A DNA stretch of 39,598 nucleotides from Candidatus Aenigmatarchaeota archaeon (GTDB lineage: Archaea; Aenigmatarchaeota; Aenigmatarchaeia; QMZP01), in assembly GCA_015520105.1 (NCBI GenBank), contig WAQT01000033.1, forward strand, positions 1-39,598. The letters run 5' to 3'. How positions within the stretch are numbered: the first letter of the stretch is position 1; each line of letters opens with the position of its first letter. The translations under genes were made by a program, and so were the position numbers. This document shows positions 3,399 through 39,598 of the stretch, piece by piece. The notes beneath the pieces are model-generated. The model searched no databases. It saw only the letters and a list, made by a program, of their open reading frames with translations, and was not told the origin of the DNA.

Positions 3399-4271
3399 TC
3401 ATATATCGTGATTATACAACTCGAGGTTTTTCCTGATTCTATTGAGTCTGTTGAGGGAGGGCTCAAGAACGTCTGCCACAACCCCAAGGGATATGTGCTT
3501 TGCTGCCTCAAGGGCGCCTCTCTTTGCGGGGTCATTGCCGCCCAACTCCCTGACAAGGGATTCGAGAGAGTCCCTGTATTCCTTCGTAGACCTTCCAGTG
3601 ATATTCAGTGCTTCGGCGTATATCCGTATTATATCATTTCTGTAACCCGGATAAGCGGAGATGAGAGATTCCATAGGTTCTGGTATACCGTTTTTTCTTG
3701 CCGGCGCAGTGCGTCCGGCATTCTGCCTGTCGGATAACGCAGCGCCCTGGCCTGCCGAATCTTCCATGAGGTATTCAGGCTCTTTCAGAGCCAATATGAA
3801 ATTTCTTATTTCTTCATATTTCATCGTTCTCCCGTGCACAATCATGACATTAAAAAATTTTTCGAGTGAGACGTTTCCATCTTCTGTGAGCACCGAAGGG
3901 TTTTTTCTGATGAGCCTGTGCACAATAAAATAGTAAGATTTCTCTTTCGCAGCAGCCTCCATGACCCGCTTCTTTGGTACGGATGAGTTAGTTATTTCGC
4001 TTTTGGTGCGCAGATAGTCGCTAATCACGGAAAGCGCGTCTTCTCGCTTTTTTGGTCCGCTGACATACTCCGCATACTTTCCGATATCAACCATTCCGCT
4101 GCTGTCAATCGCATTCTCGGTGACATATCTGGTGTGATTATTCGCTGTGGAAGGAGAAACCGATGATTTTCTGAGGAGCGCCCGGAACACGTCCTCTTCG
4201 ATTCTGATGTTGCTGTCAATCATCTGTCTGTAATCATCTACCTGACCAGCTGTCCAGAAAGAATGGGTCAT
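3399..4271 (-). CDS. Hypothetical protein
   Basis: 290-aa ORF, 9 nt from the next ORF, AT-rich TATA-like sequence upstream; no confident family. Confidence 0.65.
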   Translation of the reverse strand: MTHSFWTAGQVDDYRQMIDSNIRIEEDVFRALLRKSSVSPSTANNHTRYVTENAIDSSGMVDIGKYAEYVSGPKKREDALSVISDYLRTKSEITNSSVPKKRVMEAAAKEKSYYFIVHRLIRKNPSVLTEDGNVSLEKFFNVMIVHGRTMKYEEIRNFILALKEPEYLMEDSAGQGAALSDRQNAGRTAPARKNGIPEPMESLISAYPGYRNDIIRIYAEALNITGRSTKEYRDSLESLVRELGGNDPAKRGALEAAKHISLGVVADVLEPSLNRLNRIRKNLELYNHDI

Positions 4272-4352
4272 GGTTTATTGTATAGAAAAAGTTTTAAATT
4301 GCTTCATCGCTCTGTTCTCTGCTATTCAAAGCAATGAGAGCGGCAGCCGCAG

Positions 4353-4775
4353 TTACTTTATCCTCTCGTTCAGTATGGCCGGGCACACCCTGGTGACGCC
4401 CTCCACAGATTCGAGCTTCCTTATGAACCCGGAAAGTCTTCCTGAATCCGCGAGCCAGCATTCTGCAAGTATCATGTGGTCTCCGCTCGAGGAGTAGAGC
4501 GAAACAACCTCCTTCATGCTCCTGAGACTCTCAATCACGAATATGTATCTCTCGGGAAGCGTGTCTATTCCCACAACAGCCTGCGCGCCGAAACCGAGCT
4601 TCTTGGGGTCGGCGTCTATGGTGTATCTCTTTATAGCCCCGGACCTCTCCAGCGCTTTCATCCTCTTTCTCACAGCTGTCTCGCTCACCCCGAGAGCAGA
4701 AGCAAGCTCCACATAGGGGGTTCTGGAATTCCTCATTAGAAGCTCTATGAGTTTTTGGTTTGATATTCGAACCAT
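4353..4775 (-). CDS. lrpA: Lrp/AsnC family regulator, LrpA type
   Basis: HTH LGVSETAVRKRMKALE and C-terminal RAM domain with SSGDHMI and GVTRVCPAIL, as in Pyrococcus LrpA; start moved to ATG at 4775 (MVRISN) to avoid overlap with the divergent gene. Confidence 0.88.
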   Translation of the reverse strand: MVRISNQKLIELLMRNSRTPYVELASALGVSETAVRKRMKALERSGAIKRYTIDADPKKLGFGAQAVVGIDTLPERYIFVIESLRSMKEVVSLYSSSGDHMILAECWLADSGRLSGFIRKLESVEGVTRVCPAILNERIK

Positions 4776-4793
4776 AACTTTATATATTCGGAT

Positions 4794-4810
4794 ATAACTT
4801 ATAAAGTTAT
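4794..4810. promoter_or_regulatory. Inverted repeat in the divergent lrpA/rubrerythrin promoter, candidate operator
   Basis: ATAACTT-ata-AAGTTAT, flanked by TTCG and CGAA, in a 55-nt intergenic region. Confidence 0.45.
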
Positions 4811-4830
4811 CGAAATAGGAGGTGATTTTC

Positions 4831-5412
4831 ATGGAAAAGACAATAGAGAATCTTGCAAAGGCTTTCGTCGGAGAGAGTCAGGCAAGGAACCGCTACACGT
4901 TTTACGCAAAGATAGCGCAGAAGGAGGGATTTGAACAGATAGCGGAGATATTCCTCGCCACAGCGGACAACGAGAGGGAGCACGCAAAGTGGCTCATGAG
5001 ACTGATAAATGAGCTGAAGAAGAAATCGGGGAACGATATCGAGATAAGTGTTGACGCTCCTGTTCCCACAGTGCTTGGAGACACAAGAGAAAACCTGAAA
5101 GCGGCAATCGAGGGAGAGAATTACGAGAACACGAAGATGTATCCCGAATTCGCTGATATCGCTGAAAAGGAAGGGTTTCCCGAAATAGCGAAGAGGCTCA
5201 GGGCGATAGCTGTTGCCGAAAAGCATCACGAGGAGAGGTATCAGAAGCTTCTTAATGAGGTTGAAGGGAACACGGTGTTCAAGAAGGGAGAGAAAACCGT
5301 ATGGGTGTGCAGGAAGTGCGGATATGCGCACGAGGGCGAGGAGCCTCCGGAGAACTGTCCGTCCTGCAGCCATCCGAAGAACTACTTTGAAGTGAAGTGC
5401 GAGATGTACTGA
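4831..5412 (+). CDS. rbr: Rubrerythrin
   Basis: [22 protein letters not shown] di-iron ligands; C-terminal rubredoxin-like CRKCG...CPSC; SD GGAGGTGA before ATG 4831. Confidence 0.95.
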
Positions 5413-5422
5413 GGCGATAAGA

Positions 5423-5797
5423 ATGGCCGAGGTAAAAGAGGTGTACAGGTGCAACATATGCGGGAACGTGGTTGAACTCATGCATGCCGGCGGAGGCCAG
5501 CTCGTGTGCTGCGGCCAGCCCATGGAGCTTCTCGAGGAGAAGAAAGAAGAAGAGGGGAAAGAGAAGCACGTTCCTGTAATAGAGAGGAACGGAAATATCG
5601 TAAAGGTGAAGGTCGGTTCAGTTCCCCATCCCATGGAGGAGAAGCATTACATAGCATGGATAGAGCTGGTCGCTGACGGGGTTTCCATGAGAAGCTTCTT
5701 GAGGCCGGGAGAAAAACCGGAAGCGGAGTTCGAGACAGGCGCAAAGAGTCTATCAGCGAGGGAGTACTGCAATCTCCACGGCCTCTGGAAGTCATAG
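5423..5797 (+). CDS. dfx: Desulfoferrodoxin (2Fe superoxide reductase)
   Basis: CNICGN...CCGQPM desulforedoxin domain; [21 protein letters not shown]. Confidence 0.95.
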
Positions 5798-5838
5798 CCT
5801 GCGCGATACCCATTTAAGAAGGCTCGGACATAATTAAA

Positions 5839-6651
5839 ATGATGTTCGAGTCCTTTGTTGATTTTTCCGAGATAAAAAGGAAACCGTGGCTCATGCTTGT
5901 CTGGGCAGTCGTGATTTCAAGCATTGCTATTCTCGTGAGCGCCCAGATATCGTACAGAATGGCCGCGGGGTCATACATCATAAACCTTTCCGGAATATTT
6001 GCTGTGCTCTTCACCATAATACCGGCATCATACTTTCTGACACTCATAATAAAGAAGGAGGAGAAGCTTGAGGAGAAGGAGATTGTAGAGTATCATAAAA
6101 AGAGCTTCTGGGACAAGCACGAGCTTTACGTAAAGTGGACCGGCCTGTTCTTCATCGGGCTCACGCTCAGCTTCTCGGTATGGTCATTCCTCCTTCCACA
6201 GGACTTCTTTCAGGTCCAGAACCACAAGATAGACCAGATACAGGGAAGGTTCGTGACAGGGAACTATGTGAGAGGCGACTTCGGAAGTTTTGTGAAGATA
6301 GTCCAGAACAACCTTCAGGTGATGCTCTTTGCCTTTGTGTTCTCCCTGGTGTTCGGCGCAGGCGCTGTCTTCATAATAACATGGAATGCATCCATACTCG
6401 GGGTCGCGATAGCCAGAGTGGCAGGCCACCCCCTGAATATACCGGTCACGGCCCTGCGTTATGTGCCTCACGGCGTTCCTGAAATAGCTGCTTATCTTCT
6501 GGCCGGGCTTGCCGGAGGCATACTCTCCGCGGCAGTGATAAGGGAGCACGACAGCAGAGTTCTCAGGGTCATCGCGATGGACAGCGCAAAGGTAATGCTT
6601 CTCGCTCTGGCGCTGGTCATAGTTGCGGGCGCGATAGAGGTTTACCTCTGA
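5839..6651 (+). CDS. SpoIIM-like (DUF95) membrane protein
   Basis: Multi-pass hydrophobic protein with NNLQV, WNASILG and PHGVPEIAAY motifs. Confidence 0.8.
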   Translation: MMFESFVDFSEIKRKPWLMLVWAVVISSIAILVSAQISYRMAAGSYIINLSGIFAVLFTIIPASYFLTLIIKKEEKLEEKEIVEYHKKSFWDKHELYVKWTGLFFIGLTLSFSVWSFLLPQDFFQVQNHKIDQIQGRFVTGNYVRGDFGSFVKIVQNNLQVMLFAFVFSLVFGAGAVFIITWNASILGVAIARVAGHPLNIPVTALRYVPHGVPEIAAYLLAGLAGGILSAAVIREHDSRVLRVIAMDSAKVMLLALALVIVAGAIEVYL

Positions 6652-6662
6652 CTCAGCCGGCT

Positions 6663-7226
6663 CTATTTGTTCGGGATTATAGGAACCATCGCTGTAACGT
6701 TCCGGCCCGCATAGGACGGTTCGAATATTCCGAGCATCCAGGCCATGCCGTAGTAGCCGGCCCAGGCGAGCGCCCAGCCCGCTATTATCTTTCCTATGAG
6801 CGTCGCGAGAAAGAACCTTCTGAAGTCGTACTTTATCATCCCGGCAAGCACTCCTATAATATCAAAGGGAAGGGGCGTCGCCGCGAAGAGAATAATCACC
6901 GGAAACACTCCGTGTTTCTCTGCCCATTCATGCGCCCTTCTGAGATTCCTGCCGTATTTCCTTTTCACAGCCTCCCTTCCGCCTCTTCCCAGAGCATAGG
7001 AGGTCATCTCCCCTATGGCCGAACCCGCTCCGGCAACAACCCCCACAATCCAGGGATTGAATCCGGGCGTTCCTCCGAGAATGAAGTTTATTATAAACGC
7101 GGGCGCTGGAAAGATTATGCTCATAGAGCCAACAATCTCGACGAGGAAGAGACCGAGGTATCCCCATGCGACAATCATGCTGTTGGCCCATTCAAAGAAA
7201 CCAAACAGGATGTAAGAGGGTTCCAT
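6663..7226 (-). CDS. VTT/DedA (SNARE-associated) membrane protein
   Basis: GSAIGEMTSYALGR, FAATPLPFDIIGVLAG, FFLATLIGK. Confidence 0.85.
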   Translation of the reverse strand: MEPSYILFGFFEWANSMIVAWGYLGLFLVEIVGSMSIIFPAPAFIINFILGGTPGFNPWIVGVVAGAGSAIGEMTSYALGRGGREAVKRKYGRNLRRAHEWAEKHGVFPVIILFAATPLPFDIIGVLAGMIKYDFRRFFLATLIGKIIAGWALAWAGYYGMAWMLGIFEPSYAGRNVTAMVPIIPNK

Positions 7227-7259
7227 GCTAATTATTAAAACAGCCGGATAAATAATGTT

Positions 7260-7679
7260 ATGGTCGTGGAGACAAGATTCATAGAGGTTCAGTCCGGCCC
7301 TGACATTGACATAATAGACATAACGGGCATGGTTTCAGAGGAGGTGAAGAAGTCTTCTGCCTCCTCAGGCATCGTGACGGTGTTTGTTTCAGGCTCAACC
7401 GCCTCTGTCACCACCACGGAGTTCGAGCCTAACCTGAACTCCGACCTTAAGGATGCGATTGAGAGGCTGGTTCCTTCGGATATACGGTATAAGCACAAGG
7501 AGACCTGGGGGGACGACAACGGAAAGAGCCATGTGAGGGCAAGCCTTTTCAAGCCGGAACTAACGATTCCCTTCAAAGACAGGGAGCTTCTGCTCGGAAC
7601 GTGGCAGCAGATTGTTCTCATAGACTTCGATGTTCCTGCGAGGACGCGAAGGATTGTTCTTCAGATTATGGGGGAATAG
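7260..7679 (+). CDS. yjbQ: YjbQ/UPF0047 family protein
   Basis: DIT, GSTASVTTTEFEP, DNGKSHVRASL, LGTWQQIVLIDFD. Confidence 0.92.
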   Translation: MVVETRFIEVQSGPDIDIIDITGMVSEEVKKSSASSGIVTVFVSGSTASVTTTEFEPNLNSDLKDAIERLVPSDIRYKHKETWGDDNGKSHVRASLFKPELTIPFKDRELLLGTWQQIVLIDFDVPARTRRIVLQIMGE

Positions 7680-34501: not shown

Positions 34502-34804
34502 TGAGCCCGGAGGGATTCCCGTTTCATGGTTTAACCCGTTTATAGGTTAACCATGCCGCATGTCCATTTGCTGCATGTTTTTGCTCCACCGCTTTTTGAA
34601 GAAGGCGGAAGCCTCTCGTAAAAAGCGGTGTTTCGAACCCTCGACACCCGGGTTTCTTCTGTCATCGAGCCCTTTGCGGGACTTTCCCTGCGGAAGCGTC
34701 TCTCCGAAAGGCTCTTCACACGCTTTTAATGACATTAAAAGCTTCACCCGGCGGCTTCGCTCGAAGCCCTGTCCGGTGCTCTAACCAGACTGAGCTACGG
34801 GCCC
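34502..34804 (-). tRNA. tRNA-Lys(UUU) with three introns (30/31, 37/38, 59/60)
   Basis: Exons 34804-34773, 34742-34736, 34653-34632 and 34515-34502 join into a 75-nt cloverleaf GGGCCCGTAGCTCAGTCTGGTTAGAGCACCGGGCTTTTAACCCGGGTGTCGAGGGTTCGAATCCCTCCGGGCTCA; BHB-like junctions. Confidence 0.88.
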
Positions 34805-34835
34805 ATAAAGACGCATGACCGCGGCACAGCCGGCA

Positions 34836-35068
34836 CGCCCTGGGCGGGATTTCCCTCTACACTATCCGGTAACCGGTGTCCGGTTAACCTCAATTAAAGG
34901 GGATGATAGTGCGGTAAGAAGGGGAAATGTGTTCCCCTTCTTGCGCTTCGAACCCGCGTCCTGGGAGTTCAGCAAACCTTTCGGAAGGCGGAAGCCTCCT
35001 TTTTGATGAAACTTTTTTCCAAAAAGTTTCTGACAGTCCCAGATGCTAGGCCACTACACTACCAGAGC
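34836..35068 (-). tRNA. tRNA-Asp(GUC) with two introns (37/38, ~59/60)
   Basis: Exons 35068-35031, 34967-34947 and 34849-34836 join into a 73-nt cloverleaf: acceptor GCTCTGG/CCAGGGC, anticodon arm TGGGA-CT-GTC-AC-TCCCA, T arm GCGGG-TTCGAAT-CCCGC. Confidence 0.88.
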
Positions 35069-35234
35069 TTTCGCGGTCCGCGGCCCGCGTCGCCTATTAA
35101 TAGGCGTTCCGGTATTTAAAGGTATCCGGCGTATTTATAAAATTAACTGGGCTAACCGGTTACCGGTTAATTCATTCTGCATCAGGTTTGCCTGCCGGAG
35201 CCAAACCATTTATTAACAGGCCCGAATTATATTC

Positions 35235-36089
35235 ATGCTGTTCTGGATTCTTCTCTCCATCGGCATTGCGGGCTTCGGTCTTGCGGCCTACTGGGACCTG
35301 AAGACCACGGAATTCCCGGACTGGCTTCCGTACTCCATGATAGGCCTTGGCCTCGGAGCAAGAGTCGTCTTCTCCCTCCTGACAGGAGAGTGGCGGTTTC
35401 TTGTCAACTCCATGGTGTTCGGCCTCGCGTTCCTGGGAATGGGCCTTGCGATGTATTTCATGAGGCAGTGGGGAGACGGGGACGCGTGGCTTCTCGGAGC
35501 GCTCGGGTTTTTGTTCCCGGACAGCGCCGGCTATTCCATCCCGCACGCCGGGCTGACAGCGCAATTTCCCTTCCCTCTAGTTCTGCTCTTCAACTTCTTC
35601 ATCACAGCGTTCTGCTACCTGATAGCTTATTCCATCGCTCTCGGAGCGAAGAACCGAAAAAAGACAAGAAAATTCCTCTCTGAACTCAGGAGCGGTCTCA
35701 AAGGAATACTATCCATAGTTGCCCTGTTCACAGTCGCCTCCACGGTTGTTGTCCTCTACCTCTCTCTCTTCCTTCGCGCAGGCCTGAATGCAACGCTCCC
35801 CATTCTCCTGTTTCCCGGGCTTGTGTTTTTCATGACAGTGTTCATGCGCTACGGAAGGTTCGTGGAGGCCAACCTGTTCAGAAAGAGGATTCCGGTCGGA
35901 AGGCTCAGGCCCGGCGACGTCCTCGTATCGGACAGGTGGAGGGGAATCACGGAGAAGGAGATCGAGAAGCTCAGGAGGAAGGGAGGCCACGTCTGGATAA
36001 AGGAGGGAGTCCGGTTCGCTCCGGTCTTCCTGATAACGATTCTGGTAACGCTGTTTTACGGAAACCTGATGGGGATGTTTCTGATATAG
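35235..36089 (+). CDS. A24 family prepilin/prearchaellin peptidase
   Basis: AYWDLKTTEFPD (first catalytic Asp), WGDGDAWLL (second Asp), C-terminal VRFAPVFL. Confidence 0.88.
   Translation: MLFWILLSIGIAGFGLAAYWDLKTTEFPDWLPYSMIGLGLGARVVFSLLTGEWRFLVNSMVFGLAFLGMGLAMYFMRQWGDGDAWLLGALGFLFPDSAGYSIPHAGLTAQFPFPLVLLFNFFITAFCYLIAYSIALGAKNRKKTRKFLSELRSGLKGILSIVALFTVASTVVVLYLSLFLRAGLNATLPILLFPGLVFFMTVFMRYGRFVEANLFRKRIPVGRLRPGDVLVSDRWRGITEKEIEKLRRKGGHVWIKEGVRFAPVFLITILVTLFYGNLMGMFLI
36025..36074 (+). repeat. 50-bp direct repeat, copy 1 (inside the peptidase 3' end)
   Basis: TCTTCCTGATAACGATTCTGGTAACGCTGTTTTACGGAAACCTGATGGGG, identical to 36848-36897. Confidence 0.92.
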
Positions 36090-36132
36090 TTGTCATGGTG
36101 TATTGCAGTCTGATTGCATACATGTACCCAGA

Positions 36133-36459
36133 TTACGTCAAAACCAGGCCGTCTTTAAGTGCCTGGCTGACAATTGATACCTGTCTGCTTTTTCTTGAGA
36201 ACTCTTCCGGAGTGAGGCAGATAAAATCTACAGGATAATCCAGATTCCAGTTTTTGTGCAGACCTATACCCCTTTTGAACATTTTCTTTCCCCTAAAGGA
36301 ATCGCTCACCACTATCAGGTCTATATCGCTGTCCTTTCCGAAATCGCCTGAAACAAGGGAGCCGAACACTATTATTTTATCTATTTTCAATTCCTTTGAG
36401 GTTTTTTCTCTGAACTCCTTTATTTTCTCTATTATTTCTCTAGTTTTTTCCTTACCCAT
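36133..36459 (-). CDS. Minimal nucleotidyltransferase (MNT antitoxin)
   Basis: IIVFGSLVSG...SDIDLIVVS...PVDFICLTPEEF. Confidence 0.9.
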   Translation of the reverse strand: MGKEKTREIIEKIKEFREKTSKELKIDKIIVFGSLVSGDFGKDSDIDLIVVSDSFRGKKMFKRGIGLHKNWNLDYPVDFICLTPEEFSRKSRQVSIVSQALKDGLVLT

Positions 36460-36797
36460 TCGATTACCCCTCTGCTGTCAGACACGGCTTCTTTTGCGTC
36501 TTCCTCCGAATATTCATCTTCTACATCTACAGGATATCTTGTTGCAACATAGTGTTGTGTTAATCTGTCGCACATGTCAATAACATTCTTTGGTGCAGAT
36601 AGTTTCTGGGAAAGCTTCACAAGGTCATGGGTTCTCCACAACTCTTTGAATCTGAGAATGTAAAGCGCCTTTAGAGCCTTCTCTGCGGCCTGCTGTGAGA
36701 GGAAAGCAGCAACATCAAATCTTTTTCCCTTAAGATTATAGACCGCCGACTCTATATCGCTTTCAGCCTTCCTCATCCATGCATTGATTTCTTCCAT
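36432..36797 (-). CDS. HEPN domain protein (COG2250 type)
   Basis: W..KAESD, AAFLSQQAAEKALKA, THDL, YVATRYP; overlaps the MNT start. Confidence 0.9.
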   Translation of the reverse strand: MEEINAWMRKAESDIESAVYNLKGKRFDVAAFLSQQAAEKALKALYILRFKELWRTHDLVKLSQKLSAPKNVIDMCDRLTQHYVATRYPVDVEDEYSEEDAKEAVSDSRGVIEWVRKKLEK

Positions 36798-36847
36798 GCA
36801 GATTAATTCTTTTTTATTTATTAAATATCTAGTCGGGGTTCGCCCGA

Positions 36848-36897
36848 TCTTCCTGATAACGATTCTGGTAACGCTGTTTTACGGAAACCTGATGGGG
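36848..36897 (+). repeat. 50-bp direct repeat, copy 2 (displaced peptidase 3' end)
   Basis: Identical to 36025-36074; continues with an alternative end (GLFVV-stop vs GMFLI-stop). Confidence 0.92.
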
Positions 36898-36956
36898 CTG
36901 TTTGTGGTGTGAAGAGATGGTATATTTTTATATAATATGAGATAAAAATATATCAT

Positions 36957-37502
36957 ATGATACAAAATTATAGCACATGGAGAGTGTTGAGGGTGTTTTT
37001 TGATGACCCTCTTCCAGAAGAGGGGTTCACGGAAAGGTGGATATCCAGACAGGCAGGCCTATCGCTTCCGTCTGTAAGGCTCCACCTTAAGAAACTCTGT
37101 GATGAAGGAAAAGAGGGATTCCCGTTGGTGAAGAAATATCCGGGAATTTCCTATCCTGTGTACAGAGCAAACAGGGACAACGAACTGTTCAGGTTTTATA
37201 AAAAAATGGACATGCTGTTCAGGTTGAAAGAATGCGGACTTGCAGAATTCCTGTGGGAAGAATGTTCCCCTCATGTTGTTGTGCTCTTCGGGTCTGCATC
37301 AAGGGGTGAAGATATAAAAGGAAGCGATGCGGATATCTTTGTTGCTGGAAAGGAGAAAGAACTCGACCTGAAAAGGTTCGAGGATGCGCTGAAGAGAAAA
37401 ATAAATCTGCATTTCTGCAGGGATATAAACAGGCTTCCGAAAGAACTGAGAAATAACATAATCAATGGCATCGTGCTTATGGGATATCTGAAGGTGTTCT
37501 GA
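36957..37502 (+). CDS. wHTH plus nucleotidyltransferase domain protein
   Basis: N-terminal HTH (ERWISRQAGLSLPSVRLHLKKL) and VLFGSASRGED..SDADIFV. Confidence 0.85.
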   Translation: MIQNYSTWRVLRVFFDDPLPEEGFTERWISRQAGLSLPSVRLHLKKLCDEGKEGFPLVKKYPGISYPVYRANRDNELFRFYKKMDMLFRLKECGLAEFLWEECSPHVVVLFGSASRGEDIKGSDADIFVAGKEKELDLKRFEDALKRKINLHFCRDINRLPKELRNNIINGIVLMGYLKVF

Positions 37503-37915
37503 TGGGTGGGGTTATCTCATGCACGCCGGACAGAGAGAGGGCAAGAAGCCTTCTTGAAATGGCGGATCTGAGAATGGAAACAATAAACCTTATGAAAGAG
37601 AATCCCGACAGGTTTGCCTCAAAGATAGTAGAAGAGTATTATGAAGCGGTTCTTGAATTGATAACCGCGATTATGTGCATGGACGGATTTAAGGTGAAAA
37701 GCGATTCTCCGGGTTCCCATATTGCAAGCATAGAATATATGAGAAGATATCCTGAAATTGGAGAAAGCGAAATCCATCTCATCAATGACCTGAGAAAGAA
37801 GAGAATAGGAATAAAGTACTACGGGCGTCATGTGAGCAGGGACTATCTTGAGGCAAAGGAGAAAATGATAACAGATGTGATAGAGAAGCTGAAAAAGATG
37901 TGCAAGAAGAACTAA
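37502..37915 (+). CDS. HEPN-like protein, partner of the upstream MNT
   Basis: Translationally coupled (TGATG); YYEAVLE, SH, LRKKRIGIKYYG pattern. Confidence 0.65.
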   Translation: MGGVISCTPDRERARSLLEMADLRMETINLMKENPDRFASKIVEEYYEAVLELITAIMCMDGFKVKSDSPGSHIASIEYMRRYPEIGESEIHLINDLRKKRIGIKYYGRHVSRDYLEAKEKMITDVIEKLKKMCKKN

Positions 37916-37947
37916 GTTGGATTGTTGTGGCGTGAGTGCTGTGTCAA

Positions 37948-38310
37948 TCAGAGCTTCCGGGTTTCCGTCTCTTTCTCGGAGGCGCTCTCCTTCTCAGGAT
38001 ATAACCATACACCCTCCCTCTGCAGGTTGAGCAGTATTCCTCGGCTGTTTCTCAGCCTTTCCCATTCCGCGGGTGTGTAGCACAGAACATCGAGGCCTTC
38101 CGGCCTGTCCCACCACTCAAGGACCCTCGATGCTCTTGCAGGAAACCTGACTCCAGAAAACTCTTCTGAGACAATAACAAAGTCGAAATCGCTTGCGACG
38201 AAGTTATCGCCTCTCGCCCGGCTGCCGAAGAGTATGATGTTTTTTGCATTTATTCTTCTTCTCACTTTCTCCGCGAATCGTTTCGCAATCACAGATGTTT
38301 GCCTATCCAT
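37948..38310 (-). CDS. Minimal nucleotidyltransferase (orphan MNT)
   Basis: IILFGSRARGD...SDFDFVIVS...LDVLCYTPAEW. Confidence 0.88.
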   Translation of the reverse strand: MDRQTSVIAKRFAEKVRRRINAKNIILFGSRARGDNFVASDFDFVIVSEEFSGVRFPARASRVLEWWDRPEGLDVLCYTPAEWERLRNSRGILLNLQREGVWLYPEKESASEKETETRKL

Positions 38311-38436
38311 TCTATCATTGAGCTCCGCCTTTGCCTATCTCTTGGTTCAGATGCTTAAAAAACATTGCGCAACGCTCATGCGGCATCCCTCGTGATGTTC
38401 CTGCGTTGCTCAATTATACGCGATCTTTCGTTTATG

Positions 38437-39171
38437 TCAGATTCTTCCTGTAAGCGAGCGGTAAAGGTCCTTTCTTCGCGGGCCGAACGGGTCGTGGCAC
38501 AGCTCGTATCGAACCCAGAACGTGTCCACAGATTCGGCCACCTTTCCGTATCCGTCCCTTATGGCATCAAGTACAGGATCTGTTTCTCCCTTTCCCAGCT
38601 CTCTCGCCAGCGAGAAGACAGAAAGCCATTCCAGGTCCCAGAGGTCGAGCTTCTGTTTCTCCCGCTTTTCGTTCTCCTTGAAATCGTGCTCAAGGTCGAA
38701 CACATAAATATCGCCGCTGTATGAGAGTCCGAAGTTCTGGGGCCCCGGGCATCCGTGAGAGTCTATCTCCTCATGGACTGCTCTCAGCACATAGGCGCAG
38801 TCCCTCACGAGGCCAAGCTTTTCTTCTCTGTCTCTAGAAGGGTCCTCGAGAATATCCCTTACGTTCTCCATATCGATTCTCTCAAATATGTTGTATCTTG
38901 AGTGCTCGTCATGAACGAGTATTCTTGGCGTTCTGACCGAACCGGAGCTGTAAAGCACGTCAGATTTTTCTTTCTCCCTTCTGCATCTCTCGGAGACAGA
39001 GGCAAGATCGTTTGTATGAAGAAGGTACGTTATTGCCGGAGACCACAACACTCTGTTTCTCGGGTCTATCTTAAGCTGTTTGTATCTCTTGGTCACGATG
39101 CCCTTTCCAAACTCTATGCTGTTCGTGTAAGAGTGTCTCGGGACAGCGTCATCCGGAATTTCATTATTCAT
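38437..39171 (-). CDS. Protein-kinase-like fold protein (RIO/Bud32/Kdo-like)
   Basis: VTKRY, RREKE, VRTPRIL, LRAVH...HGCPGPQNF, YVFDLE, DLWDL; start set to ATG 39171. Confidence 0.65.
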   Translation of the reverse strand: MNNEIPDDAVPRHSYTNSIEFGKGIVTKRYKQLKIDPRNRVLWSPAITYLLHTNDLASVSERCRREKEKSDVLYSSGSVRTPRILVHDEHSRYNIFERIDMENVRDILEDPSRDREEKLGLVRDCAYVLRAVHEEIDSHGCPGPQNFGLSYSGDIYVFDLEHDFKENEKREKQKLDLWDLEWLSVFSLARELGKGETDPVLDAIRDGYGKVAESVDTFWVRYELCHDPFGPRRKDLYRSLTGRI

Positions 39172-39303
39172 ATTCACTAATTGGTAGTCATATATAAATA
39201 CTTTTAACTGTTCCAGATTCGGTAATTTCGCATCACAAACAACGCGCGGCCGCAAGCGGCAAGATGTTATTTATTTGGCCGGGAATAATTATAAACGGTG
39301 AGA

Positions 39304-39598
39304 ATGGCTGATGCGGATTTTAACGACTCTATTGGTATCATTGACGAGGAACACGATTATAAAGCAACTGTTGAGAAGCGTTTCAGATTCTCTCCAAGAA
39401 AGAATACTCTGAGAATACTACTGCTCACTATACCACTGAGCATTCCGGCAGGCGCAGCGATAATGCCACAGAGACTGTTTTTTGGGCTCTTAAGAAAGGG
39501 GTTTGATGTAAAAGTGATAACGCATTGGTGGGATTGTGGTTTTGAGCCACTTGTCCGTTATTCTGTAATCGGCAAGGAAGGGTATAAAACATTCTTTG
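39304..39598 (+). CDS. Hypothetical protein (3'-truncated by window edge)
   Basis: SD GGTGA before ATG; open to the window end (MADADFNDSIGIIDEEHDYK...). Confidence 0.6.
   Translation, partial: MADADFNDSIGIIDEEHDYKATVEKRFRFSPRKNTLRILLLTIPLSIPAGAAIMPQRLFFGLLRKGFDVKVITHWWDCGFEPLVRYSVIGKEGYKTFF

Follow-up and report, generated by a model that had tools for sequence, protein, structure and literature searches.

We report that an 823-bp unit holding only a HEPN-MNT gene pair is flanked by two copies of the 3' end of an A24 prepilin-type peptidase gene in an archaeon of the phylum Aenigmatarchaeota. The locus is one instance of a frequent, non-site-specific insertion-duplication in this phylum and is no peptidase switch. 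On balance we consider it probable that the layout arose by homology-driven insertion-duplication, that is, by a single crossover of host recombination with the incoming gene end of a relative and with no dedicated integrase. The window analysed here is the whole stretch of 39,598 nt; it comprises all of contig C33 of genome G000, whose assembly has 797 kb in 66 contigs, a completeness of 88% and a GC content of 0.50.

Results

The target gene (35235-36089, plus strand) encodes an intact peptidase of 284 aa (PF01478, E 1.2e-8) that ends in MFLI-stop; A24 peptidases were matched in 59 of the 61 genomes searched. Its 3' end is present twice. The longest exact match covers 50 bp (36025-36074 and 36848-36897, spacing 823), a pair of 50-mers that simple arithmetic expects about 1e-21 times by chance in 40 kb, and the repeat stretches to 76 nt at 88% (36008-36083 and 36831-36906). 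The repeat alignment places copy 1 (36008-36083, plus strand) at the working gene end; copy 2 (36831-36912, plus strand) is an orphan with a decayed left part and the ancestral end LFVV-stop. The original prediction of a unit containing only HEPN and MNT inside an exact 50-bp repeat is confirmed by coordinates and Pfam matches, and read in frame the two copies differ at their ends as it had claimed (GMFLI-stop in copy 1, GLFVV-stop in copy 2). The last two codons and the stop of the working gene (36081-36089, plus strand) would stem from incoming DNA, judging from the relative G001 and the contig borders in run X1 described below. The 50-bp repeat is otherwise unique host sequence: a third copy is absent from G000, and none was found in 36913-39598, where 18 to 153 of 200 shuffles scored equally high. 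GC content is 0.40 in the cassette interior versus 0.55 in the peptidase gene and 0.50 in the window. ARAGORN and Rfam gave no match at the cassette locus, and no RNA holding the locus was found.

We checked the assembly against the Logan assembled contigs of run X1, which may be the source sample. One X1 contig ends at 36054, another spans 36051-36877 and a third restarts at 36874, so that the breaks fall exactly at the repeat; a separate 56-nt piece (36848-36903) of higher depth is common to both copies. Since the contigs break at the repeat and share a deeper piece, the misassembly that had been named as a possible undoing of the finding is judged unlikely. At 31-letter words these borders are the expectation for a true repeat ending at 36080. 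In the X1 strain the exact repeat is likely to measure 56 bp, with 36075-36080 shared and only the last three codons truly replaced. Depth was 18.8 in the cassette, 25.5 and 22.8 in the flanks and 32.7 in the shared piece; as contig depth gives no share of cells, we set it aside as a sign of cassette-free cells. Neither an empty allele nor a circle joint occurred among the assembled contigs, from which rare forms could escape. In X3, which belongs to another study, one 151-nt record of depth 2 joins the start region of MNT to a 35-nt repeat copy; the left part of this copy is less decayed and HEPN is mostly missing, a weak observation from a single record.

Both cassette genes lie on the minus strand. 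The first encodes a HEPN-T protein of 121 aa (36432-36797; PF05168, E 2.2e-30), a predicted toxin, and overlaps the start of the second by 28 nt; the second encodes a minimal nucleotidyltransferase (MNT) of 108 aa (36133-36459; PF01909, E 1.5e-13; PF18765, E 1.6e-10), a predicted antitoxin. An AT-rich TATA-like box on the same strand (36818-36825), 21-28 nt ahead of the HEPN start as read from the sequence, is a putative cassette promoter. The MNT translation contains GSx10DxD, which we take to be the MNT motif. The HEPN-T protein has relatives in the PDB (1wol, 1ufb, 1o3u), and its residues H57, R87 and Y88 are kept in 49-50 of 50 homologues. The classical Rx4-6H RNase motif is absent from its translation; H57 and R87 are conserved instead, which fits the HEPN-T variant that lacks the His of Rx4-6H and has an alternative N-terminal His in the available text of Anantharaman et al. 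2013 (PMC3710099). As adjacent, overlapping genes in an operon-like unit the two fit the HEPN-MNT module (HEPN-T), and in their small size, overlap and alternative His they resemble the HEPN-T modules in the accessible parts of PMC3710099 and PMC2701414.

Beyond copy 2 the window holds further cargo: an HTH-MNT gene (36957-37502, plus strand, by Pfam), a 137-aa partner that is HEPN-like by context only and gave no Pfam match (37502-37915, plus strand), an orphan MNT gene (37948-38310, minus strand, by Pfam) and a kinase-like ORF (38437-39255, minus strand) with a weak APH match below the curated cut-off (PF01636, E 5e-4), the last being part of a lineage-specific insert. The HTH-MNT gene and its partner have two paralogous pairs, on contigs C7 and C55. 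No HEPN remnant was detected beside the orphan MNT. Together with the X3 record, in which HEPN is mostly missing, and with the broken HEPN genes of several relatives, the orphan MNT fits a decay that starts with the toxin.

Searches for related loci with single proteins returned one locus in genome contigs and four in metagenomes, with no close strain among them; the sequence of the nearest (L119, 71% identity) stops about 90 nt past the stop codon. A comparison was possible with G001, a genome of the same genus whose peptidase is 58% identical and ends in LFVV-stop. There, the homologue of the conserved downstream neighbour (39298-39597, plus strand; 66% identity over 90 aa) begins 84 nt past the peptidase stop. 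The segment 36090-39297 is missing, including all of the further cargo, and the whole insert relative to G001 amounts to 3.2 kb. The last 15 nt of the G001 peptidase gene match copy 2 at 14 positions and copy 1 at 9. Since the G001 end is closer to copy 2, the orphan copy appears to be the ancestral end and the working end the new one. The comparison is one-sided, as G001 is distant, its upstream genes differ and synteny holds downstream only. That the insertion restored its target with a replacement 3' end, as had been proposed, is supported by the empty site and by the ancestral end of the orphan. Two hydrophobic codons and a stop would arise from random sequence of cassette composition with P ~0.006 (~0.04 for any two codons and a stop), and at this low chance the new peptidase end looks like the end of an orthologue. 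The swap itself changes VV to LI plus one L/M change, that is 2-3 conservative hydrophobic residues at unchanged length. In the tails of 29 peptidase orthologues the length varies by 6 residues and hydrophobic residues interchange freely; since the swap falls inside this natural variation, it is probably neutral and of no functional weight.

Similar repeats recur across the phylum. After exclusion of two duplicates and one out-of-phylum locus, we surveyed 61 HEPN loci, of which 5 were dropped for flanks below 300 nt (n = 56), and scored direct repeats that are at least 25 bp long, at least 80% identical and no more than 450 nt away from either end of the pair. Flanking repeats were present at 14 of the 56 loci, in 9 of 36 genomes and 6 families, with 6 loci in G033 alone; the search for other HEPN-MNT pairs flanked by duplicated gene ends, proposed earlier as a check, thus returned further cases. 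These repeats are 26-132 bp long, lie 696-995 bp apart and nearly all sit at different targets, and the cassettes between them measure 0.7-1.0 kb and carry intact genes. No such repeat was found at the remaining 42 loci, which counts against the explanation that we favour. Under the same rule none of 26 peptidase loci (from 29 relatives, of which 3 were dropped) and none of 22 dCTP deaminase loci (from 23, 1 dropped) had a repeat, together 0 of 48 core-gene controls, as compared with 4 of 1066 tiled windows of G000 that had one. Counting one locus per genome and leaving out G000, 6 of 35 compares with 0 of 48 (Fisher P 0.004, with kin not independent).

Duplicated 3' ends belong to the genes for LeuRS, PPDK, an Lhr-like helicase and an M15 peptidase as well as to unnamed genes; other targets are the NrdR/NrdD start, a PRTase start, a NUDIX/POR junction and, twice, the end of MNT itself. 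AAA_14 ATPase loci had flanking repeats in 7 of 26 cases (30 taken of 49 matches, 4 dropped), and in G000 repeats surround NYN, LAGLIDADG, AAA_14, DUF2268/nitroreductase and ATPase_2 genes. With the same layout at so many genes, a special role of the peptidase as a target, as in the original prediction, is not supported, and the occurrence with cargo other than toxin-antitoxin pairs shows that the layout is not specific to HEPN-MNT; the C-terminal swap, also singled out there, lies within orthologue variation. Two further sites gave no polarity: PPDK orthologues were too distant to polarise L047, and the host gene on C63 of G000 had no match in G001.

That gene, membrane-protein-like, has a 116-bp duplicated 3' end around a convergent NYN gene (C63 1330-2308, L124), in the same geometry as at the peptidase. 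On C21 (8905-9663, L125) a free-standing LAGLIDADG gene lies between perfect 47-bp repeats behind a family B DNA polymerase gene, with its start within copy 1 and its stop within copy 2. Ahead of the EF-1-alpha gene (C32 8783-10152, L127), a repeat of 93 bp, 87 of them exact, encloses 1.2 kb of low-GC DNA with a 119-aa ORF that had no Pfam match. The perfect 131-bp repeat at the start of C66 (1-131 and 1317-1447) may be an assembly loop.

At several loci (L058, L077/L101, L087, L097 and C28 of G000) three or four repeat copies occur with differing cargo between them. At the nrdD start of G033 the order is copy, small ORF A, copy, HEPN-MNT, copy, nrdD; in G011, of the same genus, it is copy, other cargo, HEPN-MNT, copy, A, copy, nrdD. 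The same two cassettes are thus present in swapped order. At third positions of conserved codons the two genomes agree at 0.915 in MNT (n = 82) versus 0.746 in nrdD (n = 256); the greater likeness of MNT at synonymous sites suggests that MNT was exchanged after the split of the two species. The Lhr-like site is filled in G011 and empty in G033.

In the array on C28 of G000 (3973-7393, L126), an intergenic segment of 130-150 bp that lies upstream of the S12 gene region is present in triplicate, and the copies separate two low-GC cassettes, one with DUF2268 plus nitroreductase and one with AAA_14-DUF4143. At L097 (G033 C27 2500-10045), the terminal 26-36 bp of MNT are repeated in four copies that frame two HEPN-MNT pairs and a PIN-containing cassette. 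There, the landing site of toxin-antitoxin cassettes appears to be the end of their own gene. About 1.3 kb from the nrdD-start array two overlapping ORFs (L098 101-903, G033 C90) resemble, by eye, a split IS5-type transposase; they are the only transposase-like genes seen near any repeat case. Outside the phylum we searched the class to which a Woesearchaeota record belongs, and 5 of its 301 genomes had a HEPN match. One of the five, G311, has multi-copy repeats around tandem pairs; the other four had no spanning repeat. At L193/L194 (G311 C1, a Woesearchaeota record) the tandem HEPN-MNT pairs and a third small ORF lie between 3-4 copies of an 85-125-bp repeat.

Features of dedicated mobility systems were not found. 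The 22 repeats share no att motif (mean pairwise score 12.98 versus 12.64 shuffled, maximum 21 versus 22), the 22 cassettes have no terminal inverted repeats (end-to-end scores 8-14), and no attC-like hairpin is consistent among them (mean fold z -0.6, +0.6 at the peptidase locus), which together argues against site-specific recombination, transposition and integrons. The layout had been called a signature of integration; this stands as an insertion that brings a new end but not as site-specific integration, no att motif being shared. Cassette ends show a slight excess of similarity among themselves; it was rejected as a recombination motif because the signal of the top pair is MNT gene-end sequence. 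In keeping with the earlier statement that the unit lacks an integrase or transposase, no recombinase lies in or near it and no integrase on its contig. G000 encodes one tyrosine recombinase (PF00589, 269 aa), on contig C39, and a full-length Rad51/RadA-family match is present; PF00239 and PF01797 (resolvase and Y1 transposase) had no match in this 88% complete genome. The C39 recombinase (L133, 4746-5554 and beyond) consists of Phage_int_SAM_4 and Phage_integrase, borders low-GC DNA (0.31-0.45) at the contig end; a tRNA-like repeat region lies about 1.1 kb away, and the recombinase may belong to a separate island.

We further compared the copies of 17 coding repeats, leaving out L035, L056 and L151. 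They differ at 31 synonymous and 29 non-synonymous positions; 33-43% synonymous differences would be expected of a working copy and a neutrally decaying orphan (P 0.002-0.12, depending on assumptions), and the excess is not significant under strong transition bias (P 0.03-0.12 at kappa 4). This moderately supports that both copies were once working alleles. At the peptidase locus the scored stretch has 0 synonymous and 3 non-synonymous (conservative) differences, which counts against the explanation favoured here.

Discussion

According to the host-crossover explanation, a cassette of promoter, HEPN and MNT would have sat behind the peptidase gene in a donor, from which it would have departed either in circular form or on a fragment flanked by two copies of the gene end. 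A crossover in the shared 50-70 bp would then have placed the donor's last codons on the gene and orphaned the host's old end. Insertions whose repeat spans a start or stop would keep the gene intact and survive, later cassettes could reuse any copy, giving arrays and changed order, and the predicted toxin-antitoxin pair would disfavour cells in which the repeats recombine and the cassette is lost. We infer the circles, the excision, the dependence on RadA and the addiction. At the peptidase locus the same-length hydrophobic end, with its low chance, favours this crossover. It counts against this explanation that recombination of the RadA type would have to act on repeats as short as 26-50 bp. 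It also counts against it that the ATPase on C13 of G000 is 82.6% identical to a relative located elsewhere in G001, so that new sites arise without a donor at the same locus. To form the first duplication at such a site, one illegitimate join is probably needed.

Such new sites are accounted for by one-step break repair or template switching, in which a broken or stalled host end was copied twice over ~66-73 bp while a linear foreign fragment was captured. The copies would have drifted later, and the three new codons would be cassette flank kept by selection. Perfect or near-perfect, sharp-edged repeats at other loci (L053 30/30, L144 50/50, C21 47/47) look like fresh local duplications, which speaks for break repair and against a donor crossover, and both the 56-bp exact repeat implied by X1 and the less decayed copy 2 in the single X3 record (151 nt, depth 2) point in the same direction. 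However, break repair requires that a same-length hydrophobic end arose by chance, and L059 likewise has a same-length alternative end; it has to contend with the synonymous excess between copies, and alone it does not yield a swapped cassette order. We regard it as possible but unlikely; break repair may be the birth step and host crossover the spreading step.

We consider it improbable that homologous segments are recombined in trans by a tyrosine recombinase of relaxed specificity whose gene lies elsewhere. A precedent exists: in the available text of Cossu et al. 2017 (PMC5495485) the integrase of pTN3 carries out low-specificity recombination of arbitrary pairs of homologous segments in archaea. 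This activity was seen there at ~100 bp or more, whereas the median repeat length here is 55 bp. Besides G000 with its recombinase on C39, one or more tyrosine recombinases occur in 9 of the 10 other genomes in which such repeats were seen; but the family was also matched in 14 of 14 control genomes, so that its presence says little, and G073 (94% complete), with a repeat case of 68 bp, gave no recombinase match. Nothing observed links the G000 recombinase to these repeat sites.

The prophages e14 and phage 21 integrate into the coding gene icd and supply a replacement 3' end. As in these prophages, the working gene ends here in incoming sequence and the native end is orphaned at the far side, but the unit has no integrase and no fixed att site and measures 823 bp. 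A decayed remnant of a larger integrase-bearing element with its att site in the peptidase 3' end, the other objection raised in advance, would agree with this typical prophage layout and with the cargo past copy 2. The 3.2-kb insert relative to G001 nevertheless holds no match to an integrase, resolvase or Y1 transposase, a third repeat copy is absent downstream, and cassettes of 0.7-1.0 kb with intact genes occupy many unrelated targets; we regard this reading as largely refuted and highly improbable. A functional switch, in which excision alters the peptidase C-terminus and hence pilin processing, could appeal to the two different ends but is scarcely credible given their equal length, changes smaller than the variation among orthologues and the absence of the repeat at all 26 other peptidase loci. 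Equally hard to credit is an assembly artefact: the sequence is a metagenome assembly of 66 contigs and no single record spans the whole unit, but the copies differ on both sides of the core, the X1 contigs branch as a true repeat predicts and X3, from another study, weakly joins part of the cassette to a copy of the repeat.

Insertion with long target duplication was reportedly described for restriction-modification genes by Nobusato et al. in 2000. Furuta, Abe and Kobayashi 2010 (PMC2853133; the following refers to its available text) found target duplications, long and variable in size, that flank restriction genes without any mobility gene and in many cases cover start or stop codons, with no archaeal system surviving their selection and with release of such units being without experimental evidence. 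Our cases resemble theirs in the long, variable and imperfect direct repeats of unique host sequence, the lack of a mobility gene, the frequent spanning of a start or stop, the intact target and an empty site in a relative; a lower-GC insert is shared with one of their cases. The peptidase locus itself has a repeat above 30 bp, an insert below 20 kb without mobility gene and an empty site in G001, but HEPN-MNT in place of restriction and modification genes. In contrast to their systems (PMC2853133, as available), the cargo here is sub-kb HEPN-MNT, in other cases ATPase, NYN or LAGLIDADG genes, and since it is not a restriction system, breakage by restriction cannot be the general cause. Further differences are the archaeal host, the share of about a quarter of such loci affected, the multi-copy arrays and the swapped order. 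The release step is unproven both in their model and here.

In type VII toxin-antitoxin systems HEPN is toxic and is neutralised by NMPylation that MNT catalyses. The accessible text of PMC11586414 applies the type VII label to HEPN-MNT, and that of Makarova et al. 2009 (PMC2701414) notes recent insertions or deletions of HEPN-MNT between strains. In contrast to the present loci, the HEPN-MNT modules in the available parts of PMC3710099 and PMC2701414 come with neither an insertion mechanism nor a flanking duplication. The arrays resemble the neisserial tpsC 3'-end cassettes (PMC3848433, in the part available) in their small, repeat-separated units of variable order, but their cargo is no alternative protein tip. 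Across titles and abstract openings, mostly outside subscription journals, we found no report of this pattern for HEPN-MNT or DPANN archaea.

Integrons hold arrays of small, repeat-separated cassettes whose order can differ between genomes. The present arrays likewise have small cassettes between repeats in an order that varies between genomes, but what separates the cassettes are arbitrary ends of host genes, which lack an attC-like fold and have no integrase beside them. A tentative idea, to which we give less credence than to host crossover itself, is a recombinase-free, integron-like traffic in which sub-kilobase toxin-antitoxin and ATPase cassettes would move among strains and species as non-replicating microcircles, use any gene terminus of 30-130 bp for attachment, and stack into arrays and reshuffle. 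If this were true, no mobile unit of the traffic that stabilises itself would be smaller than the addictive HEPN-MNT pair.

HEPN-MNT is known in the accessible literature as highly mobile in archaea, and the duplicated gene end would be a readable scar of its route. The scar is present at about a quarter of the HEPN loci, in unrelated genes, within one phylum of small archaea. For reduced genomes that are poor in mobile elements it offers a concrete way of gaining genes that can be tested, and it would widen the range of insertion with long target duplication to archaea and to cargo other than restriction genes. The 823-bp unit is a small substrate for testing the unproven release step.

Upstream of the peptidase gene the window contains two tRNA-like genes on the minus strand (34860-35070 and 34560-34805) that ARAGORN missed, each interrupted by an insert filled with repeats. 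The first looks like a tRNA-Asp (GTC) whose insert lies directly 3' of the anticodon, and the insert modules recur on many contigs of G000.
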